Shown: in pieces, positions 5,719-63,625 of the stretch
Position numbering within the stretch: the stretch's first letter is position 1
Layout of the letters: every line of letters starts with the position of its first letter
Source of the DNA: Candidatus Aminicenantales bacterium
GTDB taxonomy: Bacteria; Acidobacteriota; Aminicenantia; Aminicenantales; Saccharicenantaceae
Direction of reading: 5' to 3'
DNA length: 64,000 nt
Assembly (NCBI GenBank): GCA_049513915.1
Contig: JBEKVN010000001.1
Location: 158,283-222,282 of the forward strand
Notes under the pieces: generated by a model
Told to the model about the DNA's origin: nothing
What the model saw: only the letters and a program-made list of their open reading frames with translations
Databases searched by the model: none
Made by a program: the position numbers and the translations under genes

Positions 5719-6822
5719 CTATTTAAATATCCCTATTTTCTTAATAGCCCTCTTAATTGATGGAAATATCCTATCGGCAGCACGAGCTAGTTTGGCTGTT
5801 CGTTCATTCGCATAACTATCGAATCTTCCAAGATACTTAACGTCCTGGCCGTTTTTTCCTGAAAGACCCACCTTGAAATGGTAGCCGCCTGGGTTTTCTA
5901 TAGGGTTGATGCCGTTGAGATTGTAATAACGGCATTCGTTATTCTTCATCCACTGGATGGCTTTCCATTGAAGCAGGTATGAGCCTTTATTGGTCATGCC
6001 TTCATCGTTTGTTGCGCCAAATAAATAAATGCCCGTATCTCCAACGAGTGAGCAAATAACCCCGGCCGAACTCACGCCGTCGGAATGGCAGAGAAAGATC
6101 CGCATCTTATATTCGGGCGGGAGATCTCTCTGGATCATTCTGAACTCGTTTATGTCGTTGGGCTCCGGGAATTTCTTTCTATCCAGCAAAGCCCGATAAA
6201 GTCCGATAAAGTCGGCAAAAAAACTGTCGTCTGCGCCTTCGATCACTTCCAGATTGTTGCGCTCTGACTTGTTCAGGCAATTTCGCCATTTTTGATCAAG
6301 TTTCTTTCGCACTTCATCTAATGGTTGGCTGATGTCCATGATAATTGTGCGGCCACGATTTTCTCGGGGAACGGGTGTGTACCCTTCTATTGATAAGATG
6401 TCGGTGTATATCTGAGAATTATCATCATACAAAATAGGGAAGATCCGCAGTATCAAGCCGCGCCGACAGACATATTCGTTTCTCAGCGAGCGGAGTGCCT
6501 GTTGAAAGATAGCTGGATCCGGGATTTGGTTCCGGGGCTGCCAGACGGGCGCCCATCTAATATATGCCGCACCTTGCCCTAGAAGCGGGATGCTCACGAG
6601 GCGTGCTTGTGCCGCTGCGACGGTTTTGTCGCCTGATCGCAAAACCATATGGGTGATATTATTTTCACCACAACGAACGGCGTCGTATGACCAGGTTTGA
6701 TAAATATTCGCATCAGAAAGTTGATTAAGAATTATGTGCCATTCCTGTTTGTTGATGGTGTCGAATTGCGCAATGTATCCATGATCAAGAGGTTTTGGTT
6801 TAGCGCCCATGGATATTGTCAA
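5719..6822 (-). CDS. FemAB-family / BioF2-like GNAT-fold aminoacyl- or acyl-transferase (paralog 1)
   Basis: The C-terminal region SYLLQWKAIQWMKNNECRYYNLNGI resembles the FemAB (peptidoglycan bridge-formation) family. A PEP-CTERM-associated FemAB subfamily exists. Confidence 0.55.
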   Translation of the reverse strand: MTISMGAKPKPLDHGYIAQFDTINKQEWHIILNQLSDANIYQTWSYDAVRCGENNITHMVLRSGDKTVAAAQARLVSIPLLGQGAAYIRWAPVWQPRNQIPDPAIFQQALRSLRNEYVCRRGLILRIFPILYDDNSQIYTDILSIEGYTPVPRENRGRTIIMDISQPLDEVRKKLDQKWRNCLNKSERNNLEVIEGADDSFFADFIGLYRALLDRKKFPEPNDINEFRMIQRDLPPEYKMRIFLCHSDGVSSAGVICSLVGDTGIYLFGATNDEGMTNKGSYLLQWKAIQWMKNNECRYYNLNGINPIENPGGYHFKVGLSGKNGQDVKYLGRFDSYANERTAKLARAADRIFPSIKRAIKKIGIFK

Positions 6823-13961: not shown

Positions 13962-14954
13962 TCAGGAGTTTCCCGTGCCGGAGTCTTTCAGCATATGTCT
14001 CTCGGCATCGACGATATCTCCTCCGCTGCGAACCCGGGCCGCTAGGCCGTAAAGGCGGTATTTCAGAGGACGAAGAGGATACTTCCATATGTAACCGTGC
14101 TTGAGTGTCGCCCCAAAGCGTTTCTTAAACAGGCCAAGCGCTTCTTGTTTTGAACCCTTCTCAGGGCTGATTCTGGCACCCACAAAATCATAAATTCGAA
14201 CGCCCAAGTTCTTGAACAGCCGGATGGCCTCCCAATATAGGAGCTTATTCGCGCCCTGTGGCTGGCCAAGCGCATTTCCGGCATAAATAGCATATGCGCA
14301 ATAATCGCTGTAAGCGAAGACACAAAAGCTTTGAGCGACGCCTTGCTGATCTGCGATCAAAAGTTTCCCGAATTCCGCAAGCCCCAATAGGTAGCCTTTA
14401 AAGGACTCCTGGTCCATGAAAGGGAGCTTCGAGCGCTTGAACGTATCCTTTATCAATTGATAAGCCCCTTCAAACTCTTCTCCGACCGCGTCCCGAATGA
14501 TAATGCCGGCCTTAGAAGCCGACTTGATATTCTGCCGGGTTATCCTGTCGATATTCTTCCATAGGACGTCTTCAGACTGACTTAAATCGATGACATAGCT
14601 GCCGTAGGGGGCGGCGTCGGCCCCATCCGGATAGGTACGGAAAATCGTATTCGTCGTCGCCGGAATGACCATGTCAGCGCCGATCGAGCGGAAATATTCG
14701 ATGGTTCCGTTCAAAAAGGACTTCTCTTCAGAGACGTCGAATCCCTGAACCATGGGAATGGTCTCGACCCGGAAGCGGACCATACGAAAGATGGCTTTCC
14801 GAACAATCGTGTAAGGCAGCACGCATCGGAGCTCACCCGATTCGGCAAACCCGCCCAGCCAGCCGTATTCGTCGCTCACCGCCTTCAAGAAGGATTCTTT
14901 GGCAAAAATGGGAAGCTCGGGGTGCCAGTTGATTTCGACGGGTTGAACTCTCAT
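13962..14954 (-). CDS. FemAB-family / BioF2-like GNAT-fold transferase (paralog 2)
   Basis: NKLLYWEAIRLFKNLGVRIYDFVG matches the C-terminal FemAB-type block. Confidence 0.55.
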   Translation of the reverse strand: MRVQPVEINWHPELPIFAKESFLKAVSDEYGWLGGFAESGELRCVLPYTIVRKAIFRMVRFRVETIPMVQGFDVSEEKSFLNGTIEYFRSIGADMVIPATTNTIFRTYPDGADAAPYGSYVIDLSQSEDVLWKNIDRITRQNIKSASKAGIIIRDAVGEEFEGAYQLIKDTFKRSKLPFMDQESFKGYLLGLAEFGKLLIADQQGVAQSFCVFAYSDYCAYAIYAGNALGQPQGANKLLYWEAIRLFKNLGVRIYDFVGARISPEKGSKQEALGLFKKRFGATLKHGYIWKYPLRPLKYRLYGLAARVRSGGDIVDAERHMLKDSGTGNS

Positions 14955-28262: not shown

Positions 28263-29331
28263 TTTTCCGGCGGAGGTCCTTGTGGATGGTCGTGTTGAGG
28301 TAGTAAAGCTCCTCGAAATAGCGCTTCTTCTGGAGGGAAAGAAGGCCGAGGCTGATGAGCTGGATGGCCACGAGCAGGGCGATGCCGCCGACGATGAACG
28401 AATGGGGCGAGGCTGCGAAGGCTGCGCCGATGGCGTCGGATAATCTGTAGTCGAAGGACAGGCCGGGGCCCGCGGCCTTGCGATAGGCGTGGATCGTGTG
28501 GACAACCGTCCAGGTCAACGGATAAAGGGAGAGCACGAAAAGAAGGCCGCCCGGGACGATGAAAAACATGAAGGGCCGGAAGATGTATCCGGAGAGGATG
28601 TGATGGACCATGCTCCTCGCGACCTTCAGGGACGATTTTCTCCGTACCGCGAGAGACCCTGTCTCAAGAGCCGGCTTCCAATCGAGATGGGCCGGGCATT
28701 CCATGATCCGGGCCCGCAGGATCTTTGCTTTGTAGATGATTTCCGGGTTGATCTCGACGTCCATAGACTTAAGGGTCAACCGACGCAGGAATTTGCCGTC
28801 GTAGGCACGGACCATACCCGTGATCGTCGTGAGCTTGTCGGACTGGCTGTCCTTGGCGACCGTCATAGCCAAAAAACGGTTGGCCCAAAAGCTCAGGAGC
28901 CTGCGGGCCCAGGGAACGTTCGAGACCTTGCCGCCCTTAGCGTAGGGAGAGGCGATAACGATCTTGGCCCCCGTCTCTTTCATCCGGGCCAGCATCCGGC
29001 CGACATGCGCGGGGGTGTAGCTGAGGTCGATGTCCAGGACGGCGACATAATCGCCCTTGCTTTCATTAAAGGCGAATCGGAGGGCCTGCCCGAGCTTGAA
29101 ATTGAACTTGTGATGGAGGACGACTACACGACCCCGCTCCGCCGCGAAAGAGTCGGCGATCTTGCCGGTCGCGTCGGTGCTCCCATCGTCGACCACGATC
29201 AGCTCCCAGCGGTATTCCGCCTCGAGGCTGGCCAGGTATTCGCAGATGATGGACAAATTGTGTTGGATGATCTGTTCTTCGTTGTAGGCCGGGACGATGA
29301 CCGTGAGGAGAGGCTTCTCTGGAGGCATCAT
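28252..29331 (-). CDS. GT2 polyprenyl-phosphate sugar synthase (DPM1/GtrB/ArnC-like) with C-terminal TM helices
   Basis: PLLTVIVPAYNEEQ, VVDDGSTD and DID motifs, plus two C-terminal membrane helices. This architecture is typical of bactoprenol-P-sugar synthases. Confidence 0.7.
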   Translation of the reverse strand: MMPPEKPLLTVIVPAYNEEQIIQHNLSIICEYLASLEAEYRWELIVVDDGSTDATGKIADSFAAERGRVVVLHHKFNFKLGQALRFAFNESKGDYVAVLDIDLSYTPAHVGRMLARMKETGAKIVIASPYAKGGKVSNVPWARRLLSFWANRFLAMTVAKDSQSDKLTTITGMVRAYDGKFLRRLTLKSMDVEINPEIIYKAKILRARIMECPAHLDWKPALETGSLAVRRKSSLKVARSMVHHILSGYIFRPFMFFIVPGGLLFVLSLYPLTWTVVHTIHAYRKAAGPGLSFDYRLSDAIGAAFAASPHSFIVGGIALLVAIQLISLGLLSLQKKRYFEELYYLNTTIHKDLRRKNDQ

Positions 29332-30305
29332 GCTCCTTTCGCCCTGAGGCTTCGGACCCTCGATCGCCCTTTTTTAACCATGAGCGATTCGGCATAGACA
29401 TCCATAGGCACGAGTTGGAACTTCTTCGAAAGGATTTCCATGACTCTCGAGAGCGCCCTCTGCTTCTTCTCTTTTATTATGTCCATGCCGGGAAAAAAGG
29501 CAAGCCCGGGAACCTCTTCGGCGCTCAGGAAATCGAGGGGATGGAGAAGGAAGCTCAGGCCGGTCCGGGTCCACCGGCACAAATTCGCGGCGGTCCCGAG
29601 ATAATCGAGCATCAAGGCGTCGGAAAAACGGGCCATATAGAGAAGATAGCTGAAATGGATCGGGACTTTGAAAAACGGCATAGTCGTCACGGGGATTTCC
29701 AACAAACGTCCTCCGCCTGGAAGAGCCCAAGAATAGGGTTTTACCGGCAGGAGGGCCTCGCGAAAGCCGCCGAAGAGCTTTTTCCGGTCCCTCTTTTCGT
29801 CGGGGGTGAGGTCGGATTTCCAGAAGTAATAGAGACGCCCAAGCGGGCCGATCCACGTCGGGAGCGTCGAAGCGTCATAGTTGTAGTCGAGCTCCTTCAA
29901 GACGAGGATTAAGTCTTCGCTCCAGCTGAAGCCCGGTCCGCGGAAGCCGGCCGGTCTTCGTCCTGTGGCTTCTTGGATGGCTTTTTCTGCAAGAAGGATC
30001 TCTTCCCGGATCTTCTCCCGTGGGAAAAGATGGAGCCACGGCTCGTGCCGATGGGAGTGATTCCCGACGTCGTGGCCGTTTCTGGTGATCTCGGCCAGGG
30101 CTCTACGGTTCTTGTCCAGCGCGGCATCCTGACCCACGACGAAGAAGGTCATTTTCAAGTCCAGGCGGCCGCAAAAATCGAGGACCTGCGGGATTAAGAT
30201 GTCCAAATAGGAAGGGTAATCCTCCCATCCCGTATCGCCGTGGGTCTTCACGTAGGACCACTTGTTGTCGAGGTCGAGAGAAAGCGCGGCCAGGGGCTTT
30301 TTCAT
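29328..30305 (-). CDS. Polysaccharide deacetylase (CE4, NodB homology domain)
   Basis: MTFFVVGQDA and GNHSHRHE are classic NodB motifs. Start at Met-30 (ATG 30303-30305) makes an ATGA overlap with the upstream stop. Confidence 0.75.
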   Translation of the reverse strand: MKKPLAALSLDLDNKWSYVKTHGDTGWEDYPSYLDILIPQVLDFCGRLDLKMTFFVVGQDAALDKNRRALAEITRNGHDVGNHSHRHEPWLHLFPREKIREEILLAEKAIQEATGRRPAGFRGPGFSWSEDLILVLKELDYNYDASTLPTWIGPLGRLYYFWKSDLTPDEKRDRKKLFGGFREALLPVKPYSWALPGGGRLLEIPVTTMPFFKVPIHFSYLLYMARFSDALMLDYLGTAANLCRWTRTGLSFLLHPLDFLSAEEVPGLAFFPGMDIIKEKKQRALSRVMEILSKKFQLVPMDVYAESLMVKKGRSRVRSLRAKGA

Positions 30306-31969
30306 GAGTGGACGGCCTTTTGGACCAGACGCGAGGCAAATCCGTCCCAACCGGCCGGTTCCTCCACCGGGCCGGGGTCGGCGAGGAGGCATCCGGTCGT
30401 GCAGGTTTCCGCGATGGCCTTGACTTTTTCGAAACCGGCCCGGTTGAACTCGTCCAAGGCATAGCGGTCGTTGGCAAAACGGATGAAGGAGTCGACCTCG
30501 TTGGAGAAGCCCGTCTTCATGGCCCGGAAGCCGTGGTAGACGGCGTCGACGAATTCGAGCGGTGGCCTGGTCTTGCCGCGTCCTAAGCCATGGAAGGCGA
30601 TGTCCTTAGCCGGACTATCCGTCCGGCCGAGCAGGTTGCAGCCGTCGAAGATGTGTTTCAATCTCGGCGCCGCCCGCAATATCGACTCCAAGTTCTCGCG
30701 GTAGGCGCGGTGGCCCGCGCAAAACACGAGCAGATCGGCTTTCCCGAGGGCTTCGTCAAGGTCCCGTGTGAAGTGCCCGGTGAGCCGGGATTTTTTCAAA
30801 TTCTGATCATCCTTTTTGACGTAGGGATCATGGAGAACGACATCGGCGCCCTTGGCCAGCAGCAAGTTGGCCAGGACGAGCGTCGGCGAATTACGGGTAT
30901 CCTCGGAGTCTGGACGGTAAGCCGTGCCCATGAGCGCGAGGGTTTTGCCGGCGACGTCCCCCGAGCGCCGCTCGATGAGCGAGATCGCCACGGCCGGGGA
31001 CTCGTCGTTGATACGCCGCGCTTCGAGGATCAGACTGGAGGACATGTCCCGGCCGCTCTCGATCTGCCTCCAAAGGAGGAGGATCCCGTCCTTGGGAAGG
31101 CAGTGCCCCCCGACCCCGACCGTCGGGATGAGCAGGCCGCCGGTCGGGACCTCGCTCGAGGCCGAGGAGGCCAGGTCGCTCCACGCCAGGCGCCGGTTGA
31201 CTTCATCCCGGATGCAGTAATAGTCGATATCCTTATCTTCGCAGGCCCGGGCGATTTCGACCGAGTAGGCGATCCGGACGTCACGGTAGGCGTTCTCGAG
31301 CGTTTTCACGATCTCCGCGGTGAGGCTGTTCGTGAGATGGAGCTTGCCGTTGCGGACGATCGAGGAATATAGGGAGTGGATGAGCTTCGGCGTTCGAGGG
31401 TCGAGCCCGCCGGCGACCTTGTCGGATCGCCTAATCCGCTCCACGAGCCGGCCGGGCATGACGCGATTGGGGCTGTTGCCGAGAAGGATCGTCCGGCCGT
31501 CGGCGAAACCATGCCGGCCGAAAAGGTCCGCGACCCAGGTGGCCATGGATGTCGGGGCGAGGGTGGACTCGAAGATGACCAAGGGAGTCTTCCCGGAACG
31601 CCTTCTCTTGAGGGCTTCCGCCGTTCGATGGATCGCGTCTTCCAAGGGCTCGTAATCGGGCCCGAACCCCTTTTTATCGGTCTGGACGCAGATAAGGATC
31701 GCATCGGCCTCTCTGAGGTCGGCGTAATCATGGCTGGCCGTCAGCCGTCCCCGAGCGTGCGCTTCGGCCACGATCCCATCGAGCTCGGGCTCGATCCCTC
31801 CGATGGGGGATTTTCCGCGATTGATCGCGTCCACCTTCCAGCCCGAGGTCGGGGAGGCACGTTGGATGACGACGACGCGATGGCCGGCTTCGGCGAGCAG
31901 GGCGGCCATCGGGACTCCGACGATGCCCGCTCCGATGACCGCAATGTCCTGGATTTCCGTTTCCGGCAT
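30302..31969 (-). CDS. UDP-sugar 6-dehydrogenase (UDP-glucose/GDP-mannose dehydrogenase family; WbpA/WecC-like) with C-terminal extension
   Basis: IAVIGAGIVGVPMAALLAEAGHRVVVI (NAD site) and GGHCLPKD (catalytic Cys). Start at ATG 31967-31969. Confidence 0.8.
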   Translation of the reverse strand: MPETEIQDIAVIGAGIVGVPMAALLAEAGHRVVVIQRASPTSGWKVDAINRGKSPIGGIEPELDGIVAEAHARGRLTASHDYADLREADAILICVQTDKKGFGPDYEPLEDAIHRTAEALKRRRSGKTPLVIFESTLAPTSMATWVADLFGRHGFADGRTILLGNSPNRVMPGRLVERIRRSDKVAGGLDPRTPKLIHSLYSSIVRNGKLHLTNSLTAEIVKTLENAYRDVRIAYSVEIARACEDKDIDYYCIRDEVNRRLAWSDLASSASSEVPTGGLLIPTVGVGGHCLPKDGILLLWRQIESGRDMSSSLILEARRINDESPAVAISLIERRSGDVAGKTLALMGTAYRPDSEDTRNSPTLVLANLLLAKGADVVLHDPYVKKDDQNLKKSRLTGHFTRDLDEALGKADLLVFCAGHRAYRENLESILRAAPRLKHIFDGCNLLGRTDSPAKDIAFHGLGRGKTRPPLEFVDAVYHGFRAMKTGFSNEVDSFIRFANDRYALDEFNRAGFEKVKAIAETCTTGCLLADPGPVEEPAGWDGFASRLVQKAVHS

Positions 31970-38103: not shown

Positions 38104-39099
38104 TCAGGTTACGATCTCCGGCACCGCGCCAGCCAAAATCGGAGGCAAGTGAAGGTACAACGTCGTGGAGCGCTTCCTTTCGATGTCCCGGTAGATGCTG
38201 CGAACTTGTTGCGGCGAAAGGCCGGTGTGTCCGCTGACCGTTTCGGCGTCGATGCCGTGGTTTTTTCCATAGAGGCAGAGGTCCATGATCTCGTAAGGAA
38301 CGGTGAAGTAGAATTCGTCCTGCCCCTGAGGCAGGGAATAGGTGTCCGTCGTCGGCGGTCGGCGGAGGACGGCCTCCGGCAAGCCCAAATGGCGCGCCAG
38401 CTGGTAGACCTGTGTCTTGTACAGGTGGGCGATGGGCTTGATGTCCGCGGCGCCGTCGCCGAGCTTGACGAAGAATCCCTGGTCGTATTCCAGCCGGTTA
38501 GGGGTGCCCGCGACGGCATAGTTGTGCTTATCGGCGTGGTAGTATTCCAGCATCTTCCTGATTCTTTGCTTGAAATTGGTGGCGGCCACGATGGCTAGAT
38601 AGGAATTCAAATCAAGCCGCTTTTTTATCTCCCTTCCATCCGGCGAAACGGCGACTATCGAGAACAGCGTGTAGGGCTTGTCCTCTCCGATGCCCGGCAA
38701 GACGAGCTTCGACTTCCATCCGGCGCCATATTTGGGAATGACCGACCGGACAGCTTCGTCATACTTGGTATAGAAGCCGGCGGCATCGAGGAGTGAGGAG
38801 ATGTCCCAGTGGACCTTTCGTATTCCTAGATGATCTGCAACCACCGAGCTCAGCGCCATTGTCTCGTCTGCAGAATGGCGTTCGGGCATCTGGAGGCCGA
38901 TGACCTTGTCTTTCCCGATGGCGCGAGCACACAAGGCCGCCGTGACACTGCTGTCGATCCCCCCGGAAATGCCGAGGATCAGGCCCCTCCGGCGGAGCCT
39001 CTTGGCCAAGGCCTCTCTTATCGAGAGAGCGATCCTCGCCACTTCGCGATCGCCATCGATCGTGAGAACCTCCCGGGAAAAATGAACGCCTGCCATCAT
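38104..39099 (-). CDS. NAD+ synthetase-like PP-loop ATP pyrophosphatase (NadE family, paralog 1)
   Basis: GLILGISGGIDSSVTAALCARAIG is the PP-loop SGGxDS motif. Size and C-terminal region are typical of NH3-dependent NadE. Confidence 0.7.
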   Translation of the reverse strand: MMAGVHFSREVLTIDGDREVARIALSIREALAKRLRRRGLILGISGGIDSSVTAALCARAIGKDKVIGLQMPERHSADETMALSSVVADHLGIRKVHWDISSLLDAAGFYTKYDEAVRSVIPKYGAGWKSKLVLPGIGEDKPYTLFSIVAVSPDGREIKKRLDLNSYLAIVAATNFKQRIRKMLEYYHADKHNYAVAGTPNRLEYDQGFFVKLGDGAADIKPIAHLYKTQVYQLARHLGLPEAVLRRPPTTDTYSLPQGQDEFYFTVPYEIMDLCLYGKNHGIDAETVSGHTGLSPQQVRSIYRDIERKRSTTLYLHLPPILAGAVPEIVT

Positions 39100-42442: not shown

Positions 42443-43477
42443 TTATCCGACGAGCCTATAAAACAGCCTGCCAATGATGCGCAGAATGCTCGTCGGAGTC
42501 CTCGCGACGAGGAATCTCGATAATCCCCCGCGGCCGCGGTGCTCCGCAAGGTAAGCCTTCTCGCCGAGGTCGTAACGGAAATATTCCAGCACAGTTTCTT
42601 TCGCGCCCCATGCCCTTTTGTACCGCAAAAGGCCGCGGTTATCGATCTCGGTCCTGCCAAGGCTCATCGTCGCAAAATTTCGGTCATTGTACCAATTCAG
42701 GGCTTCCCACATGAGAAGATTGTTTGGTCTTAGACACTGGTGCTCCATCTCCGAAGCCCCGTACTTGAATAGGGCCTCGTTTCCGAAATGAAAAAAGATG
42801 GACGCCGCGATGACTTTGCCCGCGTGATAGGCGGAAAAAACCTGGCCGAGATCCCGGGAAAGGACATGTTCGAGGACGTTCTTGAAGAAGATGAAGGGCT
42901 GGGGTGGGAGGGCGTGCCTTTTTCTGGTCATGCAATTCAAGCGATAGAAGGATCTCAGAGATTCGGCCGAGCGGTCGGTCCGTACGGACACGCCCTCGCG
43001 GAGGGCTTTTTTGATGTTCCTTCGATTGTTGGAGCTTAGACTCTTAAAAAGGTCCGCCTTGGTCTTTCGGAGGCCGATTTCATGCATGAGATAAGTTTTC
43101 CATGCTGGTGCGCCCTCCGGGCCATACGGATCGTCCCGCCACTCGATGGATCGCCACCCGTTTTTTTCTCCGTAATCGATGGCGCTCTTCACCGCGGCCT
43201 TCAGCGACTCCGGCTCGAGGACATGAGGGGCGCATCGGTCCGTGAATGGGAGGGCCACCCCTCGTTTCCCTTTCAGGGGGCCATACACCTCCATCATGGG
43301 CATCAAAAGAGCGAGCCGTCCACTCTCCGAGGAAACGAAATAGAGGGGCTTGAATCGGTAGGTCGCTTGAAGGACCTTCGCCCAAGCCGATGTATGGAAA
43401 AACGAGTGGTCGTTGTTCTGCAACAAGACCTCGTCCCAATCGGGAGACTCGGCCGGGTTGAGAATCCGGAATTCCAT
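42443..43477 (-). CDS. FemAB-family / BioF2-like GNAT-fold transferase (paralog 3)
   Basis: MEFRILNPAESPDWDEVL...FFHTSAWAKVL is the typical N-terminus of the Acetyltransf_6/FemAB-like family. The C-terminal LLRYKRAWGAKE block is also typical. Confidence 0.55.
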   Translation of the reverse strand: MEFRILNPAESPDWDEVLLQNNDHSFFHTSAWAKVLQATYRFKPLYFVSSESGRLALLMPMMEVYGPLKGKRGVALPFTDRCAPHVLEPESLKAAVKSAIDYGEKNGWRSIEWRDDPYGPEGAPAWKTYLMHEIGLRKTKADLFKSLSSNNRRNIKKALREGVSVRTDRSAESLRSFYRLNCMTRKRHALPPQPFIFFKNVLEHVLSRDLGQVFSAYHAGKVIAASIFFHFGNEALFKYGASEMEHQCLRPNNLLMWEALNWYNDRNFATMSLGRTEIDNRGLLRYKRAWGAKETVLEYFRYDLGEKAYLAEHRGRGGLSRFLVARTPTSILRIIGRLFYRLVG

Positions 43478-43562: not shown

Positions 43563-44525
43563 CTACTGTAATATCGGCGGCGCCTGATTCAGGTGTCTGG
43601 TTGCATTGTATTTTGTGCCAAAATCCCTGAACGCCCTCCGGACCTGTTCCTCGGTTAGCGCCATGACACGACAGACCTCAGATATGTCGACCTTGTTCTC
43701 CCAGGCATAGAGCAGCAGATCGAGCTGGTTGAAGGGCATGCGGAAATACCATTCTTCATCAGTGACCGGCGCGCTGTAAGTATCCGGAGATGGGGCGCGT
43801 TCGAGTATTTTTTTGATAACTCCCAGATTTTCGGCCAATTGGAACACCTGATTTTTAAATAGATGGGCGATCGGCTCGATATCCACTCCTCCGTCACCGT
43901 ACTTGACGAACAACCCCTGCAGGGCTTCGCTCTTGTTGGTCGTCCCGCAGACCAGGAAGTTGCTTTTCTCTGCGAAATAATATTGGGTCATCATCCGAAC
44001 CCTGTGTTTGGTAGAGGTGGCCGCGATAATGCCGCGCGCCTGCGCATTGTTCAGGCGAGCACTTTTAGCAGCACCTGCGGGATCGATCACGGTCAACGTG
44101 AAGAAGTTTAAGTTGCCTCTATTGAGGATATCCGAAGGGAGCGTGATCTTCAGCCTATGCCCTTCGCTGAATTCAGGAAAGACCGATTTGGCGACCGCGT
44201 CTCTTTTCTCATACGTCCCGAAGGCCTCCAAAACCGGGGTGATATCGAATAGGATTGTTTTTATACCAAGCCGCTTCCCATAAAGCGAGGCGAACTCAGC
44301 GCTTTGCGGGCTCGATTCCTTGTCGGGAAGCAGCAAGCCCAGAACCTTTTCTTTGCCGATTGCCCTTGCCGATAACGCCGCACACAAAGCCGAATCTACT
44401 CCCCCGCTGAGGCCGATGACAAGGCCTTCTCGATGCATGGAGAGCAACTGATCCTTGATGAAAGCACAGATTCTATCGGCCTCAGATTCGCAGTCGATCT
44501 TGAGGACATCTTTGGTGAAATCCAT
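43563..44525 (-). CDS. NAD+ synthetase-like PP-loop ATP pyrophosphatase (NadE family, paralog 2)
   Basis: GLVIGLSGGVDSALCAALSARAIG PP-loop. A paralog of 38104-39099. Confidence 0.7.
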   Translation of the reverse strand: MDFTKDVLKIDCESEADRICAFIKDQLLSMHREGLVIGLSGGVDSALCAALSARAIGKEKVLGLLLPDKESSPQSAEFASLYGKRLGIKTILFDITPVLEAFGTYEKRDAVAKSVFPEFSEGHRLKITLPSDILNRGNLNFFTLTVIDPAGAAKSARLNNAQARGIIAATSTKHRVRMMTQYYFAEKSNFLVCGTTNKSEALQGLFVKYGDGGVDIEPIAHLFKNQVFQLAENLGVIKKILERAPSPDTYSAPVTDEEWYFRMPFNQLDLLLYAWENKVDISEVCRVMALTEEQVRRAFRDFGTKYNATRHLNQAPPILQ

Positions 44526-46013: not shown

Positions 46014-46973
46014 TTGATTATCGAGAGCTTTCGCGGCGATTTCGAACAGGCCGCTTCTTTGATCCAGCGCGCGTGGGCGGATAACGAAAAACAGCCGTTG
46101 CTCTACACGGCCGAATTCCTGGGCTCCTTGTTCGAGTATCCGGGCGCAGACCTTTCTCTCGCGCCGACCCTGTATGACGGGACGAAGCCGATAGCCTTCA
46201 CCGCGGGTTTTCCGCGCCGCTTGCGTTTCAAGGGCCGGGAATTGCGAATCGTCATCGGCTCATTCCTGAGCGTATCGAGCGAATTCAAAAAAAGGGGATA
46301 TGGCATTGTCCTTTGGAGTGAGCTCGTAAGGAGGGTGCAGGCCGCGGGCTTCGACGGCATGATGAACTACTGCGTCGAGGGAGAGCCGATGAACGGCATG
46401 ATCCTCGGTTGTTGCCGTCGGCTGAAGATGCCGGTCGAGCGCGTCTTTTCCATCCATTACCTTACCTGCTTACTTTGGCCGAAAGAACCCAACGCCGTGA
46501 AGAGAGAGCAGGGGGAGGGGGTCGTGGATACCTTTCTGGAATTGGCCGCTCCGATCGCGGACCGTGCGTCTCTATCTCGTATCTGGAGCAGGCCGGAAGC
46601 TGAGTGGCAGTGCTCTGGACGGCTTGGGGCCATCGTCGCCAGACGAGTCGTCGAGCGAAGCCAGGGGATCCTAACCGGCTACATCATGCAGGTCGCCGAC
46701 CCGAAGCGTACGAAGTGCCTTCTTATCGAGGACATCCTCTGGGGTAATTCGCAGCCGGAGGAACGATCGGAATTGGTCCTCCGGCTTAAGAACGAGGCCG
46801 CCGCGGCGGGGGCCAGGCTGGCCGTCGTCCCCGTCCTGGGTTATGGAGATATGGCCCCGTTCCTCTCAGCGGGTTTCCGTCCTTCACCTCGGATCGTGCA
46901 GGCGTATCTATCCGCCTGGTCTGGTCCGACAGACACGGGGACCCTTGACGCAATGTACCTGGACGTGTTTTGA
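46014..46973 (+). CDS. GNAT-family N-acyltransferase
   Basis: Acetyl-CoA-binding-like block FKKRGYGIVLWSELV. TTG start in track, so the 5' end is uncertain. Confidence 0.45.
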   Translation: MIIESFRGDFEQAASLIQRAWADNEKQPLLYTAEFLGSLFEYPGADLSLAPTLYDGTKPIAFTAGFPRRLRFKGRELRIVIGSFLSVSSEFKKRGYGIVLWSELVRRVQAAGFDGMMNYCVEGEPMNGMILGCCRRLKMPVERVFSIHYLTCLLWPKEPNAVKREQGEGVVDTFLELAAPIADRASLSRIWSRPEAEWQCSGRLGAIVARRVVERSQGILTGYIMQVADPKRTKCLLIEDILWGNSQPEERSELVLRLKNEAAAAGARLAVVPVLGYGDMAPFLSAGFRPSPRIVQAYLSAWSGPTDTGTLDAMYLDVF

Positions 46974-46995
46974 TGCGCAAGGTGGGCGACACAGC

Positions 46996-56606: not shown

Positions 56607-57188
56607 ATGGGTTTTTTCGTTCACGAAAGCTCTTACCTGGACGATGGCGTCATCATCGGAGAAGGTACAAAAATCTGGCATTTCTGCCATATTCAGAAGG
56701 GTGCTCAAGTAGGAAAAAACTGTACGCTCGGGCAGAACGTCAATGTCGGGAACAACGTCGTCATCGGGAATCACGTGAAGATCCAAAACAATGTCTCGGT
56801 CTACGAGGGCGTCACCCTCGAGGACTACGTCTTCTGCGGGCCATCCGTCGTTTTCACAAATATCATCAACCCGCGCAGCAAGTATCTCCAGTCCGGCGCG
56901 GAGTTCTACAAAAAAACGATCGTCCGCGAGGGGGCTACCCTCGGCGCCAACTGCACGGTCATGTGCGGGCACAATATCGGACGTTTCGCGTTCGTTGGAG
57001 CCGGAGCGGTCGTGACCAAGGATGTCCCGGATTTCGCGCTTGTCGTCGGATGTCCGGCGAAGGTCGCGGGGTGGGTCAGCGAAGCCGGAAAGCGCCTCGA
57101 GTTCAATAAGGACGGGCTGGCGTATTGTGAAAAATCGGGGGTGACGTATAGATTTGAAAAAGGCCACGTCGTGGAACTTAAGAAATAA
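56607..57188 (+). CDS. Hexapeptide-repeat N-acetyltransferase, WbpD-like (UDP-GlcNAc3NA N-acetyltransferase type)
   Basis: 193 aa LbH protein ([44 protein letters not shown]). It directly follows the WbpE/WbpB-like genes, as in wbp/wlb clusters. Confidence 0.7.
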
Positions 57189-58386: not shown

Positions 58387-59277
58387 ATGAGGAAGAAGGA
58401 TTGGCTGTTCGCTTTATTGACAGCCGTGACGCTGGCGCTTGCCGTGCCGCCGCTTGTCGATCTGCTGCGGACAAGGTGGTTATCGGAGTACTACGGTCAT
58501 ATCTCTTTGATCCCGATCGTCAGCGCTTACCTAATGTTCCGGCGCAGAAGGGAGATATTCCGGGGGACGGCATCGGGCCATCCTTGGGGGATTCTGGCCG
58601 CGGCGGCGGGCGTCGGGCTGTATGTGGCCGGCAGGTTCCTCGGCGGGGGGTTCGACGTCCGGGCCTCGCTGACGACCCTCGGGGCGCTTCTCTTCTGGTG
58701 CGGCTCCTATCTCTTGCTTTACGGAAAGAACGGCAGCCGGCGGGCCTTCTTCCCGCTCGCCTTCCTTCTTTTCGCCGTACCCATCCCGGCCCCAATTATT
58801 GAGAAGATCATCGCCGTCCTTGTCGTCGGCTCGGCCTACATGACCCGCCTGTTGTTGGTGGGTTTGGGCGTGCCGTTCGTTCAGGAAGGGCCCGTATTCC
58901 GCCTCCCCGGCTTCGCTATCGAGATCGCCCAGGAATGCAGCGGGATCCGATCGAGCCTGGCCCTCCTCATCACCACAGTCCTGGCCGGGCAGATCTTTTT
59001 GAAGAAGTTTTGGAAGCAAGCCCTGTTGGCCCTGGCCGTATTCCCCGTGGCCTTGTTCAAGAATGCCATCCGGATCGTCACCCTTTATCTGCTGTCCTAT
59101 TTTGTGGACATGAGGATTATTAAAGGGGGGTTCCTGCACAGGTCAGGGGGCTTCATTTTCTTCGGCTTGGGACTAGTCGTGCTGGCTTCGATCCTCTGGC
59201 TTCTCAGGGAGGGGGAGGGCCGAAGATCCGGGGCAAAAATGGACCTGGGGGATTTTAAAGGCAAGAAAATAAATTAG
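58387..59277 (+). CDS. Exosortase (EpsH/Xrt family transpeptidase)
   Basis: Conserved N-terminal YYGHISLIPIVSAYLMFRRR, active-site Cys block IEIAQECSGIRSS, Arg block LFKNAIRIVT, and about 8 TM helices. ATG 58387 is in frame within the longer track ORF 57871..59277. Confidence 0.8.
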   Translation: MRKKDWLFALLTAVTLALAVPPLVDLLRTRWLSEYYGHISLIPIVSAYLMFRRRREIFRGTASGHPWGILAAAAGVGLYVAGRFLGGGFDVRASLTTLGALLFWCGSYLLLYGKNGSRRAFFPLAFLLFAVPIPAPIIEKIIAVLVVGSAYMTRLLLVGLGVPFVQEGPVFRLPGFAIEIAQECSGIRSSLALLITTVLAGQIFLKKFWKQALLALAVFPVALFKNAIRIVTLYLLSYFVDMRIIKGGFLHRSGGFIFFGLGLVVLASILWLLREGEGRRSGAKMDLGDFKGKKIN

Positions 59278-59321
59278 ATAGGTAGGAGGGGGTGATTTTT
59301 TCCCGTTTAGGCTATTTCTGA

Positions 59322-59350
59322 TTGACAACAAGGGCGGCTTGTGCGATATT
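59322..59350 (+). promoter_or_regulatory. Candidate strong sigma70 promoter (TTGACA-N17-GATATT) plus AAGGAGG Shine-Dalgarno for the PEP-CTERM mini-protein
   Basis: Perfect -35 at 59322-59327, 17-nt spacer, -10 GATATT at 59345-59350. SD AAGGAGG at 59381-59387, 6 nt before ATG 59394. Confidence 0.45.
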
Positions 59351-59393
59351 TGGCTAGCCAAGTTTTCTCTAATCGTGGAAAAGGAGGCTTTTG

Positions 59394-59648
59394 ATGAAAA
59401 GAGCCAAAATCGTCGTTCTCTCAGTGATTCTGCTATTCTTCGTCCTGTCGACGGTGGCCAGCGCCGCGGGGATGTGGCCCGGCTGGTGGAAATCGAAAAC
59501 GGACCAGCATAGTGGCACGACCGGCACTGCCGGCGGCACAGGAAGCAGCGCCGTTTCCGTCCCCGAGCCTGCGATTATCGCCCTTCTCGGCGCCGGCCTG
59601 GTTTCCCTCGGTCTTTATGCCAAAAGGAAACGCGGCAAGAAGCAGTAA
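59394..59648 (+). CDS. Tiny PEP-CTERM sorting-domain protein (signal peptide + ~30-aa Trp/Gly/Thr-rich segment + PEP-CTERM anchor)
   Basis: MKRAKIVVLSVILLFFVLSTVASA (signal peptide), then AGMWPGWWKSKTDQHSGTTGTAGGTGSSAVS, then VPEP-AIIALLGAGLVSLGLYA-KRKRGKKQ (PEP motif, TM helix, basic tail). This is the canonical exosortase-target C-terminus. It lies directly downstream of the exosortase. Confidence 0.75.
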   Translation: MKRAKIVVLSVILLFFVLSTVASAAGMWPGWWKSKTDQHSGTTGTAGGTGSSAVSVPEPAIIALLGAGLVSLGLYAKRKRGKKQ

Positions 59649-59930: not shown

Positions 59931-61754
59931 CTACAGGACTTGCAGGACCTCTAGCGCAAGGTCATATTTCCCCAGCGGCGGGCTTATCTGGACACCCTGA
60001 ACCATGCCCTTGATCCTGCCCAGAATGTCCCGGGCAATCTCCACACCTTCCCGCCGGGCGCTCTCGGGACTCTGATCCTGCGCGCGGCGCATCCGTTCCA
60101 TGATTTCGTCAGGGATCGAGGTGCCGGGCACCTCATTGTGCATGAATTCGGCGTTTCTTAGGCTCCACAGCGGCCAGATGCCCCCGAGAATGGGAACCCC
60201 GCACGATCCCGTCCTCTTGAGAAATTGCTCGAGAAGGCGGACGTCGAAAACCGGCTGGGTGATGGCGAATTCAGCCCCGGCTTCCACCTTCCGCTCAAAC
60301 CGGTGAATTTCGTTGTTGAGGTCTATAGCCCCTGGGTTGACGCCGACTCCAACTAAGAACGAGGTCGGCTTATCCATCTTTTTCCCGCCGATGTCGAAGC
60401 CGCGGTTGAGGCAGCTGACGAAGCCCGCGAGGCCGATCGAATCGACGTCAAAAACCGCTGTCGCATCCGGATAATCTCCGAGTTTGGGCGGATCGCCCGT
60501 GATGATTAAGATATTCTGGATATGTTGGGCCTGCAGGCCTAGAAAATCCGACTGTATCCCGAGGAGGTTCCGGTCGCGGCACGTGTAGTGCAGGATGATG
60601 TCCATCTTGGTGGTGGCCGTCAAAATGGAGGCAAGGGCCATGGGACTCATCCGGGCGCTGGCCCGGGGCCCATCGGGGATGTTTATCCCATCCACCCCGT
60701 GTTTCTCGAGTTTCCGGACGGCCTCGATCGCCGGGGACGGGTCATGCCCGCGGGGCGGCACGACTTCGACGCTGGTCACGAATTTTCTGTCCGCGAGTTT
60801 TTTCCCGAGGGCGGACTTCTCTCGGATCGGAATTTGCGGCGCGCCCCGGGCCTCGGCAAGATGTCTAGCGGCCGGCATCACCCGCCTGGGCGGTTGCAGC
60901 GCTTTTATCGCGGATCTCATGGCCTTGATGTGGGCCGGAGTCGTGCCGCAGCATCCGCCGACGATCCTTACGCCGGTCATGATAAACCGTTTGGCGTATT
61001 CAGCCATGTAGTCGGGCGAACAGAGATAAAGGTTTCGCCCGTCGACTTCCCGGGGCATGCCGGCGTTGGGCATGGCCGATAGGGGAAGGGCGGTGATTTT
61101 CATCATCCGCTCGATGCATTGGAGCATGAGGGCGGGCCCGACGCTGCAGTTGACCCCAATAACCTGAACGTCCAGGCTTTCGAGCTCTTTGGTAAAAACT
61201 TCCGGAGTCGTGCCGTATAAGCTGTTGCCGTCTTCTCCGATGGTCATCTCGGCGATCACAGGGATATCCGGGGCGGCCTCCCGGATTCCCCGGACGGCGT
61301 GCTCGATTTCATGGACGGCCGCGAACGTTTCCAAAATGAAAACGTCCACTCCGCCTTCCTGAAGGGACCGGGCTTGCTCGGCGAACGCGTCTTCGGCCTC
61401 TTCGGCCGCGAGTTGCCCCCAGGGCTCGACCTTGACCCCAAGGGGGCCTATTGAGCCGGCCAGAAATACGTCGGGGCCGGCTTCCTCGCGCGCGATCCGG
61501 GCGCCGGCACGATTGATTTCGGCGACCTTGTCGTTGAGTCCGTACTTCTTGAGCTTGAAACGGTTCGCCCCGAACGTATTGGTCTCGATGATGTCCGCTC
61601 CGCTCCGGACATATTCGCGGTGGATCTCTTGAACAATACTGGCATTGGTCAGGTTGAGCTCGTCAAAACACGTATTCAGGTAGATCCCCTTGCTGTAGAG
61701 CATGGTTCCCATGCCGCCGTCGCCAAGAAGGATCCTCTCCGCAAGCGCGTCCAA
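59931..61754 (-). CDS. Bifunctional homocysteine S-methyltransferase / 5,10-methylenetetrahydrofolate reductase
   Basis: N-terminal LLGDGGMGTML...ETNTF (HMT domain with Zn-binding GGCCGTTP later) and a C-terminal MTHFR-like TIM-barrel half. Confidence 0.8.
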   Translation of the reverse strand: MDALAERILLGDGGMGTMLYSKGIYLNTCFDELNLTNASIVQEIHREYVRSGADIIETNTFGANRFKLKKYGLNDKVAEINRAGARIAREEAGPDVFLAGSIGPLGVKVEPWGQLAAEEAEDAFAEQARSLQEGGVDVFILETFAAVHEIEHAVRGIREAAPDIPVIAEMTIGEDGNSLYGTTPEVFTKELESLDVQVIGVNCSVGPALMLQCIERMMKITALPLSAMPNAGMPREVDGRNLYLCSPDYMAEYAKRFIMTGVRIVGGCCGTTPAHIKAMRSAIKALQPPRRVMPAARHLAEARGAPQIPIREKSALGKKLADRKFVTSVEVVPPRGHDPSPAIEAVRKLEKHGVDGINIPDGPRASARMSPMALASILTATTKMDIILHYTCRDRNLLGIQSDFLGLQAQHIQNILIITGDPPKLGDYPDATAVFDVDSIGLAGFVSCLNRGFDIGGKKMDKPTSFLVGVGVNPGAIDLNNEIHRFERKVEAGAEFAITQPVFDVRLLEQFLKRTGSCGVPILGGIWPLWSLRNAEFMHNEVPGTSIPDEIMERMRRAQDQSPESARREGVEIARDILGRIKGMVQGVQISPPLGKYDLALEVLQVL

Positions 61755-62698: not shown

Positions 62699-63625
62699 AT
62701 GAAAAAAGCCCTATTTGCCCTGTTCATTCTCGCGGCCCTCGCCGCACTGATCATTCCCTTCCTTCCCGCCAATCTCCCGGCCCAGCAACGTGATGCCCAG
62801 AAGCTCAAAGTCTTCATTTCGGCCGACATGGAAGGGATCACGGGTGTTGTCGCCTCCGAACAAACGACCCCCGGCAACCCTGAATACGCCGCCGCCAGGA
62901 AATGGATGGCCGAGGACGTCAACGCCGCGGTTGAGGGCGCCCTCCGCGCCGGCGCGACCGAGGTCGTCGTCAACGATTCCCACGGCAGCCAGCGCAACAT
63001 CGACCCCGGCGACATCCACCCCAAGGCCATCCTCATCTCGGGCTACCCCAAGCCGCTTTCGATGATGCAGGGGATCGACGAATCCTATAACGCCGTCCTC
63101 TTCATCGGCTACCACGCTGGCGCCGGCACCCAGGACGCGGTCCTCGACCATACGATCTCGGGGAGCGTCGTCCAGAGTGTCAAAGTCAACGGGATGGAAC
63201 TGCCCGAGCTCGGGCTCAACGCGGCCATCGCCGGCGCCTACAACGTGCCCGTCGTCTTCATCAGCGGCGACGTGGCCGTCTGCCGCCAGGCGAAGACGAT
63301 CCTGGGCGGTGACGTCGTCACGGCGCCCGTCAAGGACGGTATCGGGCGCACGGCCGCCCGCCTCGTCCCCTTCGCCGAGGCCCGCCGCGGCATCCGCGAC
63401 CGGGTGACCGATGCCCTCCGCAAACTGGGCCAGGTTAAGCCCTTCAAGATCGCGGCGCCCTGCCGGTTCGAGCTCATGTTCTACATCTCGGCCCAGGCGG
63501 ACATGGCCATGTATTTTCCGAACGTCCAGAGGGTGAACTCGCGGACCGTGGCCTTCACGTCCGATGATTATCTCAAGGGATTCAAGACGCTCCGGGGGAT
63601 GATCGCCATCGCGCCCGGGCGGTGA
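62699..63625 (+). CDS. Peptidase family M55 (D-aminopeptidase DppA-like) with N-terminal signal/TM segment
   Basis: KVFISADMEGITGVV matches the DppA N-terminal motif. Hydrophobic leader ALFALFILAALAALIIPFL. Confidence 0.7.
   Translation: MKKALFALFILAALAALIIPFLPANLPAQQRDAQKLKVFISADMEGITGVVASEQTTPGNPEYAAARKWMAEDVNAAVEGALRAGATEVVVNDSHGSQRNIDPGDIHPKAILISGYPKPLSMMQGIDESYNAVLFIGYHAGAGTQDAVLDHTISGSVVQSVKVNGMELPELGLNAAIAGAYNVPVVFISGDVAVCRQAKTILGGDVVTAPVKDGIGRTAARLVPFAEARRGIRDRVTDALRKLGQVKPFKIAAPCRFELMFYISAQADMAMYFPNVQRVNSRTVAFTSDDYLKGFKTLRGMIAIAPGR

Follow-up and report, generated by a model that had tools for sequence, protein, structure and literature searches.

A stretch of bacterial DNA of 64,000 nucleotides from Candidatus Aminicenantales (called the window throughout) carries an exosortase gene followed by a very small gene of 84 codons, which codes for a protein with a PEP-CTERM sorting signal. 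The two are referred to here as the exosortase and the mini gene, and the product of the latter as the mini protein. They are preceded by a gene for a NagX-like membrane protein. Nearly all of the window upstream of the pair belongs to one glycan or exopolysaccharide (EPS) locus, and the pair is located at the distal end of this Wbp-type locus of ~58 kb. The coordinates of all these features are collected in Table 1. The same exosortase and mini gene are found side by side in a defined group of relatives, and this pairing is the main subject of the analysis.

The mini protein is organized as MKRAKIVVLSVILLFFVLSTVASA / AGMWPGWWKSKTDQHSGTTGTAGGTGSSAVS / VPEP / AIIALLGAGLVSLGLYA / KRKRGKKQ. Both an N-terminal signal peptide and the tripartite sorting architecture are present, as read from the sequence. 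All sequence statements of the earlier note on this DNA hold, namely an 84-codon gene 116 nt downstream of the exosortase with a signal peptide, VPEP, a transmembrane helix and KRKRGKKQ. Its estimate that about 30 residues would be left after both cleavages also agrees with the predicted mature peptide of 31 residues. The mini protein scores 24.7 bits against TIGR02595 (cutoff 16), matching over residues 56-80 of 84 at the extreme C-terminus, and 23.8 bits against PF07589 (cutoff 20.7). An identical protein from a Candidatus Aminicenantales metagenome-assembled genome (MAG) is annotated by NCBI as 'PEP-CTERM sorting domain-containing protein'. A word-indexed search with the mini protein gave 48 clusters, nearly all of them full-length, with 58-89 amino acid residues. 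It had been argued previously that the small open reading frame (ORF) would lose its meaning if it were not conserved or did not match PEP-CTERM models. In fact, at least 44 full-length homologues were found, and 40 of 44 match TIGR02595. By these scores and this conservation the mini protein is a genuine conserved PEP-CTERM protein. A regular-expression scan of the window revealed no second PEP-CTERM-like tail.

The alignment of the 44 homologues (A1) contains the signal peptide, a WPGW[WF]K motif and a Gly/Thr/Asn/His-rich linker of variable length. The C-terminus is under very strong conservation and reads S-V-[AP]-E-P followed by LLGAGLVSLGxYAKRKRGKKQ, with Glu58 and Pro59 invariant. When the tail codons of the window are compared with those of locus L008, the ratio of synonymous to non-synonymous changes is 16:5 over 30 codons. 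In the signal-peptide region the comparison with L005 gives 7 synonymous and 13 non-synonymous changes; the constraint here is looser than in the tail, and the region is conserved in the core group. Purifying selection on the mini gene, as estimated from these codons, is strongest at the tail. The homologues and the synonymous excess in the tail indicate that the mini gene is a real coding gene, of which the sorting signal is the most constrained part. The hydrophobic region near the N-terminus is unusually conserved and was considered as a possible retained anchor. This candidate was rejected by the codon comparison, and a cleaved signal peptide is preferred because the N-terminal region evolves faster than the tail.

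The exosortase gene codes for a polytopic protein. In searches with hidden Markov models (HMMs) it scores 154.8 bits against PF09721 (cutoff 25.7), 129.8 bits against TIGR02602 (cutoff 105.55) and 56 bits against the exosortase/archaeosortase signature TIGR04178 (cutoff 23). The Cys/Arg/His putative catalytic triad of exosortases (10.1101/2023.06.07.544157) is found as Cys184 (ECSGIRS), Arg229 (KNAIRI) and His251 (FLHRSGG), which are unchanged across four orthologues with identity down to 54% (alignment A2). The Cys and Arg motifs pointed out earlier are among these invariant residues. Judged by score and conserved triad, the protein is a member of the exosortase/archaeosortase family. HMM typing, which had been suggested as a check, was successful at the family level but not below it. 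The scores and cutoffs of the named subtype models are 143.5/208 for XrtA (TIGR03109), 147.3/300 for XrtC, 127.2/400 for XrtD, 124.8/425 for XrtW, 109.6/313 for XrtV and 84.2/275 for XrtB, all others being lower, and none of the named subtype cutoffs (XrtA, B, C, D, H, J, M, N, T, V, W; CrtA, CrtC) is reached. A sequence search with the exosortase against the PDB gave no match at E <= 1.

The relation of the two genes was followed in a genome collection with one genome per species, in metagenome contigs and in exact-protein look-ups. In the genome collection all exosortases with at least 50% identity to that of the window (7/7) have a small PEP-CTERM gene 25-210 nt downstream, while none of the inspected exosortases with 41% identity or less (0/19) has a mini gene in this position. 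Some of these distant exosortases adjoin classical XrtA neighbours instead, for example an EpsI-like gene of 213 aa or a gene for a TPR lipoprotein. The search of metagenomes for co-located mini genes, which had also been recommended, was made with the mini tail; among the contigs with at least 500 nt of upstream sequence, 19 of 21 carry an exosortase upstream. The exact-protein look-ups gave the order NagX-like gene, exosortase, mini gene in all contigs with enough flank (L001-L008, L118). Because of these counts of adjacency (7/7, 0/19 and 19/21) the pairing can be regarded as clade-specific and robust. Taken from gene order, the mini gene is tightly and specifically paired with an exosortase clade that has no subtype name. 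No other PEP-CTERM tail was found in the 10-kb flanks of L010-L016.

Two observations concern the relatives themselves. In L012 (6246-6475), a long-read MAG from Microflora Danica (MFD), a one-base frameshift separates ...SVAEPAAML from LLGAGLVSLGVYAKKKRSKKQ and divides the mini gene in two; an indel error of long-read sequencing is more probable here than a pseudogene. The relatives are MAGs or metagenome contigs, and some of their taxonomic labels look unreliable despite loci that are syntenic with Aminicenantes. The labels at odds with Aminicenantes-type loci are 'Eubacteriales' (L010, L011, L013), 'NC10' (L016) and 'Chloroflexi' (P0018), and are likely taxonomic mislabels or binning errors.

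Table 1. Position of the exosortase, the mini gene with its parts and signals, and related genes of the EPS locus in the 64,000-nt window
Feature	Coordinates	Strand	Remarks
Exosortase, 296 aa	58387-59277	+	ATG start; catalytic Cys184/Arg229/His251; clade without a name; PF09721 and TIGR02602 passed
Mini gene, 84 codons	59394-59648	+	starts 116 nt after the exosortase stop codon
Signal peptide, Sec-type, residues 1-24	59394-59465	+	n-region MKRAK, h-region IVVLSVILLFFVLSTV, c-region ASA; predicted cleavage after ASA; by inspection
Predicted mature peptide AGMWPGWWKSKTDQHSGTTGTAGGTGSSAVS, residues 25-55 (31 aa)	59466-59558	+	WPGW[WF]K motif and variable Gly/Thr/Ser linker
VPEP sorting motif, residues 56-59	59559-59570	+	Glu58 and Pro59 invariant; VAEP in most relatives
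Transmembrane helix AIIALLGAGLVSLGLYA and basic cluster KRKRGKKQ, residues 60-84, with stop	59571-59648	+	most conserved part of the family
Sigma-70-type promoter TTGACA-N17-(TG)cGATATT	59322-59350	+	promoter scan, 10/12 matches; TG upstream of -10
Shine-Dalgarno site AAGGAGG	59381-59387	+	read from sequence; 6 nt before ATG
GC-rich hairpin (GGGAGGCCCCU-AAGA-AGGGGCUUCC) after the mini stop codon	59682-59710	+	z = -2.0; terminator-like; no T-run in window
NagX/HGSNAT-related polytopic membrane protein, 376 aa	57245-58375	+	ends 11 nt before exosortase start; conserved third module member
WbpE-like UDP-sugar 3-aminotransferase (DegT family)	54499-55647	+	PF01041 397.6 bits; WbpE 3nyu/3nu7 305 bits, E 6e-90 (phmmer against PDB)
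WbpB-like UDP-GlcNAcA 3-dehydrogenase (GFO/IDH/MocA)	55644-56591	+	WbpB 3oa2, 382 bits, E 1.5e-113 (phmmer against PDB)
WbpD/WlbB-like 3-N-acetyltransferase (hexapeptide repeat)	56607-57188	+	3mqg 224 bits, E 1.3e-65 (phmmer against PDB); PF00132
FemAB/VimA-like acyl(aminoacyl)transferase	42443-43477	-	TIGR03019 109.9 bits, below cutoff of 260; PF02388
Two further FemAB-family genes	5719-6822, 13962-14954	-	PF02388
Polysaccharide deacetylase	29328-30392	-	TIGR03006 48.7 bits, below cutoff; other deacetylase models

The tail of the mini protein defines a family. About 150 mini proteins of 42-120 residues have the common tail [VA]-[AP]-E-P + LLGAGLVSLGxYAKRKR. The family statistics refer to 150 proteins of 120 residues or less from the word-indexed and A1 profile searches, with the motif scored in 139 and the mature length in 128. 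The profile search with A1, without a word index, covered 1.84 billion representative proteins and gave 494 matches at E <= 1e-3, with 36 of these at E <= 1e-10; the top matches are nearly all 56-100 residues long. As far as these searches reach, the LLGAGLVSLGxYAKRKR flavour of the tail is private to mini proteins. The Glu and the second Pro of Pro-Glu-Pro are invariant in A1, while the first Pro is often replaced by Ala: VAEP occurs in 71 of 139 members and VPEP in 49. The copy in the window has VPEP.

The part of the protein between the two presumed cleavage sites behaves differently. Its estimated length in 128 members has a median of 27 residues (range 2-65), and its composition is 16% Gly, 10% Pro, 9% Thr, 8% Ser and 3.6% Trp. 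The linker shows indels and little conservation. Outside the core group the mature sequence is wholly different, for example FGPRRRPGH, LGPRRRHGD, GPGPGPDGPHGPNGPP and KDGDKGPIGVPKKIGHGHKGGRHG. The Trp-rich WPGWW cluster, regarded in the earlier note as a feature of the protein, is found in the core Aminicenantales group only; it is a local and not a family trait, since the mature sequence changes completely elsewhere. The Gly/Thr/Ser tract, which had been proposed as a plausible O-glycosylation or EPS-attachment site, appears as a low-complexity linker of variable length, and no evidence for glycosylation was found in it.

Two other groups of proteins were met in the profile searches. Long proteins with 4-10 matches to the mini profile were considered as mini polyproteins, and this was rejected: they are ordinary PEP-CTERM proteins, fused, with generic VPEPST...RRRR tails, and do not belong to the mini family. 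P0050 (2500 residues), P0071, P0077, P0082, P0095, P0101 and P0113 contain 2-10 internal complete PEP-CTERM tails with a new signal peptide after each, and look like tandem ordinary PEP-CTERM genes fused in gene calls by missed stop codons or an alternative genetic code. A paralogous mini subfamily of ~85 residues (L111 606-833, L114 2811-3041, L116 3670-3765; also P0112 and P0070) retains the signal peptide and a ...LVSLGIYAKRKQRK tail, with [AP]EP replaced by QPGT (or IKTF). No exosortase was found within 2.8-3.5 kb upstream of its genes. These proteins may be non-cleavable relatives of the mini substrate.

The mini gene has its own expression signals. The near-consensus promoter and the strong Shine-Dalgarno site reported before are both present, the promoter with the spacing given for it. 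The promoter scan found 2 such sites in 3 kb, compared with 0.6 expected. Each of the elements TTGACA, GAtAaT and GGAG is kept in 80% or more of the sequences from 31 distinct intergenic regions of orthologues, distant subgroups included, and this conservation is in favour of a strong sigma-70 promoter that serves the mini gene independently. High expression of the gene may be expected from these signals. The 116-nt intergenic region folds no better than shuffled sequences (z = +0.6) and the Rfam scan of the whole window gave no match, and for this reason we do not propose a riboswitch or leader RNA. A run of G and then TGATTTT (window 59290-59302, GGGGGTGATTTTT) is located 10-20 nt past the exosortase stop codon and ~20-30 nt upstream of the -35 element. 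It is common to all core-group loci (window, L002, L005, L012, L013, L090-L098, L118) and might represent a site for a regulator, an element of the UP type or what is left of a terminator.

It is important to compare the pair with the sorting systems already described. PEP-CTERM proteins average more than 10 per genome (Haft 2006, PMC1569441), and the small size of the mini protein is indeed atypical among these usually many-copy proteins, as had been remarked. The earlier note also called a stand-alone, peptide-sized and highly expressed substrate next to its sortase atypical; a sorting enzyme with a single adjacent target does, however, have precedents. A 'dedicated system', in which one sorting enzyme and one target are coded by consecutive or nearby genes, is a concept of Haft (PMC3237569; 10.1101/2023.06.07.544157), and the architecture of the pair is therefore of a known kind. 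Examples are JDVT-CTERM/MrtJ, the single-target rhombosortase genomes and the Gram-negative dedicated sortase TIGR03784. The exosortase and mini gene resemble these in being consecutive, in their regular co-occurrence across lineages and in a signal flavour private to the target, and they are adjacent in all clade genomes, in nearly all informative metagenome contigs and in every look-up locus with enough flank. They differ in two respects: there is almost no cargo, only a low-complexity peptide with no folded domain, and the target has its own conserved strong promoter and is not simply co-operonic.

The classical XrtA/EpsH system (Haft et al. 2006) shares with the window the PF09721/TIGR02602 enzyme, the Cys/Arg/His triad and the signal composed of motif, transmembrane helix and basic cluster. 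It also shares an EPS locus with FemAB-like, acyl-CoA ligase, Asn-synthase-like amidotransferase and deacetylase genes. However, the XrtA model is below cutoff here, and so are the models for the associated genes (score/cutoff: FemAB 109.9/260, ligase 338/592, amidotransferase 481/817, deacetylase 48.7/276). EpsI and PrsK/PrsR/PrsT were not found among the window ORFs scanned, which left out about a dozen smaller ones. The window has a single target of peptide size next to the enzyme, where the XrtA system has many larger and dispersed ones, and the first Pro of PEP is usually Ala in the mini family. PepA of Zoogloea resiniphila is a PEP-CTERM protein that is made in abundance and required for the formation of flocs with EPS; its model (NF033554) finds the mini protein, in the tail region, with 29.9 bits. 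This score is far below the cutoff of 80; PepA has ~260 residues, and the similarity consists of the sorting signal and the preceding low-complexity stretch.

The NagX-like protein is related to the NagX/HGSNAT glucosamine N-acetyltransferases of the membrane. It scores 136 bits against NagX (NF046061, cutoff 480) and can be assigned at the family level only; its orthologue in L008 has a 'weak' match to PF07786. The gene adjoins the exosortase in the window, L002, L005, L008, L012-L014 and L118, and lies 4 kb upstream in L015. In L105, L107 and L117 there is a gap of ~1.4 kb between the exosortase and the mini gene. A NagX-like match is present on these contigs, and for this reason the NagX-like gene probably fills the gap.

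The run of genes ending in the exosortase begins with the WbpE-like gene. WbpE, WbpB and WbpD enzymes make UDP-2,3-diacetamido-2,3-dideoxy-uronic acids. The start of the WbpB-like gene was taken from a 315-aa gene call on the identical contig L001. The roles of WbpA and WbpI have candidates at the family level only, an NDP-sugar 6-dehydrogenase (TIGR03026, 271.8 bits) and two WecB-type 2-epimerases (TIGR00236, 322.8 and 297.6 bits), respectively. On the basis of homology, the Wbp pathway gene set (WbpA/B/E/D/I) is present in the locus. The deacetylase is proposed to take a VimE-like role. The locus also holds Asn-synthase-like amidotransferase, Wzy_C, MBOAT and Acyl_transf_3 proteins, together with two adenylating enzymes, one of which is followed by an acyl carrier protein (ACP) gene in the L001 gene calls. 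In addition, there are two NAD-synthase-like genes (38104-39099, 43563-44525), an FkbH-domain protein (46843-48744) and a TupA-like ATP-grasp protein (3824-4738). The three FemAB-family genes and the NAD-synthase-like, FkbH, adenylating and ATP-grasp genes suggest an unusually heavy aminoacyl or acyl decoration of the polysaccharide.

This gene content recalls type IX secretion (the T9SS). Its sortase acceptor is an amino-acid-modified diamino-uronic sugar made by Wbp and Vim proteins, which is linked to the C-termini of the cargo (Veith et al. 2020, PMC7468200). VimA is a member of TIGR03019, the pepcterm_femAB family, and the same authors note the same gene set around exosortases and speculate that the acceptor could be of the same kind there (PMC7468200). 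The window locus resembles the T9SS and its anionic lipopolysaccharide (A-LPS) genes in having WbpB/E/D homologues and FemAB/VimA-family, deacetylase and Asn-synthase-like genes. It differs in the sorting apparatus, since PorU, a periplasmic or outer-membrane gingipain-like protease, and the C-terminal domain (CTD) signal are unrelated, and no T9SS genes were seen in the window. Two other systems are similar in the chemistry proposed here. ArtA of Haloferax volcanii couples removal of the C-terminal helix of PGF-CTERM proteins to lipid attachment, and in Vibrio cholerae RrtA, acting on GlyGly-CTERM proteins, leads to attachment of a moiety containing glycerophosphoethanolamine (10.1101/2023.06.07.544157; PMC7468200). 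An intramembrane removal of the C-terminal helix coupled to an anchoring moiety would be shared by the pair in the window. However, the substrates of ArtA and RrtA are large folded proteins and their acceptors are lipids, whereas the pair in the window has a peptide as substrate and a gene context that suggests a glycan.

These comparisons allow us to propose that the exosortase and the mini protein form a dedicated exosortase system, with one enzyme, one adjacent target and processing at the EP motif; we put the probability of this reading at roughly 0.6. The steps that follow are drawn by analogy with ArtA, rhombosortase and T9SS. The mini gene would have a transcript of its own, started at the conserved sigma-70 promoter of near-consensus sequence, and a strong Shine-Dalgarno site would serve its translation. 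The 84-residue pre-protein would be exported by Sec and cut by signal peptidase I after ASA, leaving a peptide of ~31-35 residues tethered in the inner membrane by its C-terminal helix and the KRKRGKKQ stop-transfer cluster. The exosortase, through Cys184, Arg229 and His251, would recognize the common tail of the family and cut at the EP motif with a thio-acyl intermediate at Cys184, and the helix would be discarded. The intermediate might then be resolved by an amine acceptor. The most likely one would be an amino-acid-decorated or de-N-acetylated 2,3-diamino-uronic-acid sugar of the same locus, built by WbpE/B/D, the three FemAB/VimA-like genes, the deacetylase and the amidotransferases. The product would be a glycan that bears a short Gly/Pro/Thr-rich peptide at high stoichiometry. 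For the NagX/HGSNAT-like transmembrane N-acyltransferase, a probable role in the same pathway is the modification of a periplasmic amine.

Not all parts of this proposal are equally strong. The sequences show that the mini gene is real, how its sorting signal is built, that enzyme and target adjoin within the clade, that the promoter is conserved and what the locus contains, while export, both cleavages, transpeptidation, the nature of the acceptor and high expression are inferred. With its Wbp, FemAB and deacetylase genes the locus lends plausibility to an acceptor of the amino-sugar type, and taken alone the glycan acceptor is a tentative suggestion. A further idea is that the mini peptide serves as a stoichiometric building block, with its C-terminus amide-linked to an aminoacyl-sugar or amino-sugar of the polysaccharide, or with peptides ligated head-to-tail. 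This is speculative and we consider it rather doubtful. If it were true, the outcome would be a matrix of peptide and polysaccharide, or of polypeptide, for which no described counterpart exists.

Several observations weigh against the proposed dedicated system or parts of it. The label 'dedicated' was given on adjacency and tail flavour only, and cleavage of the signal peptide was judged by eye. The mature peptide is poorly conserved, which is odd for a functional cargo. In P0055 (56 residues; L120 110-280) only ~4 residues (GYSV) separate the signal-peptide site from VAEP. If P0055 is real, the cargo would be dispensable; however, this is a single contig of 1.15 kb and too weak as a basis for further inference. 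The NagX-like gene is not beside the pair in L011 and L016. The genes directly upstream of the module also vary, being WbpE/B/D in the window and AMP-ligase, ACP, Asn-synthase and NAD-synthase-like genes in relatives. The link to one particular sugar is loose because of this difference, and the module goes with the EPS locus as a whole and not with the Wbp genes in particular. The analogy with T9SS uses an unrelated enzyme, PorU. Finally, the hairpin after the mini gene was not called by the terminator scan. In relatives an equivalent hairpin is followed by a U-run, as in L002, where bases are changed and UUUUU comes after it, but there is no T-run in the window copy. A canonical intrinsic terminator was rejected for this reason, and the hairpin was taken as weak evidence.

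The counterpart of a dedicated system is one in which the mini protein is only the shortest of many ordinary PEP-CTERM substrates of the same exosortase and its position has no special meaning. PEP-CTERM genomes usually contain many targets, as the mean cited above illustrates; the inspected part of this genome is 64 kb, and the XrtA and XrtC scores of the exosortase are nearly those of a possible divergent member. However, the adjacency is seen in every member of the clade, down to 50% exosortase identity, and is absent outside it. The tail flavour occurs solely on proteins of 42-120 residues among the 1.84 billion representatives, and no other PEP-CTERM tail lies in the window or in the 10-kb flanks inspected. 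For rhombosortase, target and enzyme are adjacent in single-target and not in multi-target genomes (Haft, PMC3237569). With this evidence a set of many substrates appears unlikely.

Two other explanations accept the pairing and assign the mini protein a different role. It might be a two-helix membrane partner of the exosortase, acting as pseudo-substrate, primer, inhibitor or activator, with the middle part as a loop and not a cargo. Conservation is indeed highest in the tail helix with its basic cluster and, for the core group, in the hydrophobic region near the N-terminus; the middle is hypervariable and sometimes very short, and the paralogous subfamily described above keeps the tail without the EP motif and with no exosortase nearby. 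Against this role, the presumed scissile Glu58 and Pro59 are invariant in 44 homologues. The canonical n-h-c layout with AXA, and the 7:13 ratio against L005, faster than the tail, are what cleaved signal peptides show, and a strong independent promoter suits a stoichiometric product better than a regulator, so that such a partner role is improbable. The remaining explanation is a maturation similar to that of AgrB/AgrD, which would release a free, cyclized or head-to-tail ligated extracellular peptide with a signalling, antimicrobial or matrix-fibre function. Such a process would be in line with a very small precursor that has a strong promoter, conserved flanks around a hypervariable core and a neighbouring gene for a membrane Cys protease, and the acyl-enzyme could in principle be resolved by the N-terminal amine of the same or a neighbouring peptide. 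Nevertheless, no sensor kinase, response regulator, immunity or export genes are found beside the pair in any locus, the pair is consistently at the edge of an EPS locus, and the Gly, Pro, Thr and Ser content is spacer-like rather than that of a bioactive peptide. We regard this explanation as very improbable and retain the dedicated system.

Exosortases were predicted in 2006. Whether they catalyze hydrolysis or transpeptidation, and with which acceptor, is still unknown (10.1101/2023.06.07.544157; PMC7468200). An enzyme conserved one-to-one with a cargo of peptide size is the simplest conceivable substrate arrangement, and three genes (NagX-like, exosortase and mini) could suffice for reconstitution. 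As the pairing is conserved in dozens of relatives, it may serve as a minimal model for finding the attachment partner of an exosortase. Because the cargo has only ~30 residues, mass spectrometry of a single small conjugate, by intact mass and MS/MS, might reveal the acceptor directly. The literature search found no paper linking Aminicenantes with exosortase or PEP-CTERM, and nothing relevant for Acidobacteria. In the literature and model libraries searched we found no description of this exosortase clade, of the VAEP-type flavour of the tail or of a peptide-sized, low-complexity and separately promoted target. The clade and the tail flavour could become new annotation models for Aminicenantia and other Acidobacteriota. 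The system also points to a possible peptide-decorated EPS in an abundant uncultured sediment lineage. Its interest is limited by the fact that the dedicated architecture is already a known concept, that the organisms are uncultured and that every chemical step is an inference.

Some other genes near the pair should be mentioned. An 858-aa predicted lipoprotein (lipobox LAVSC; 51707-54283, + strand) lies inside the EPS locus and is also present on the identical contig L001; it has no Pfam or NCBIfam match and no PEP-CTERM tail. The 627-aa PKD/beta-helix protein that follows the mini gene in L002 was checked and also has no PEP-CTERM tail. Immediately downstream of the mini gene in the window, on the opposite strand, is a fused homocysteine S-methyltransferase and methylenetetrahydrofolate reductase (MTHFR) of 607 residues (59931-61754, - strand). 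An M55 D-aminopeptidase (62699-63625) is kept as a downstream neighbour in most related loci. These last two genes probably have no relation to the pair and belong to the syntenic flank at which the EPS locus ends.

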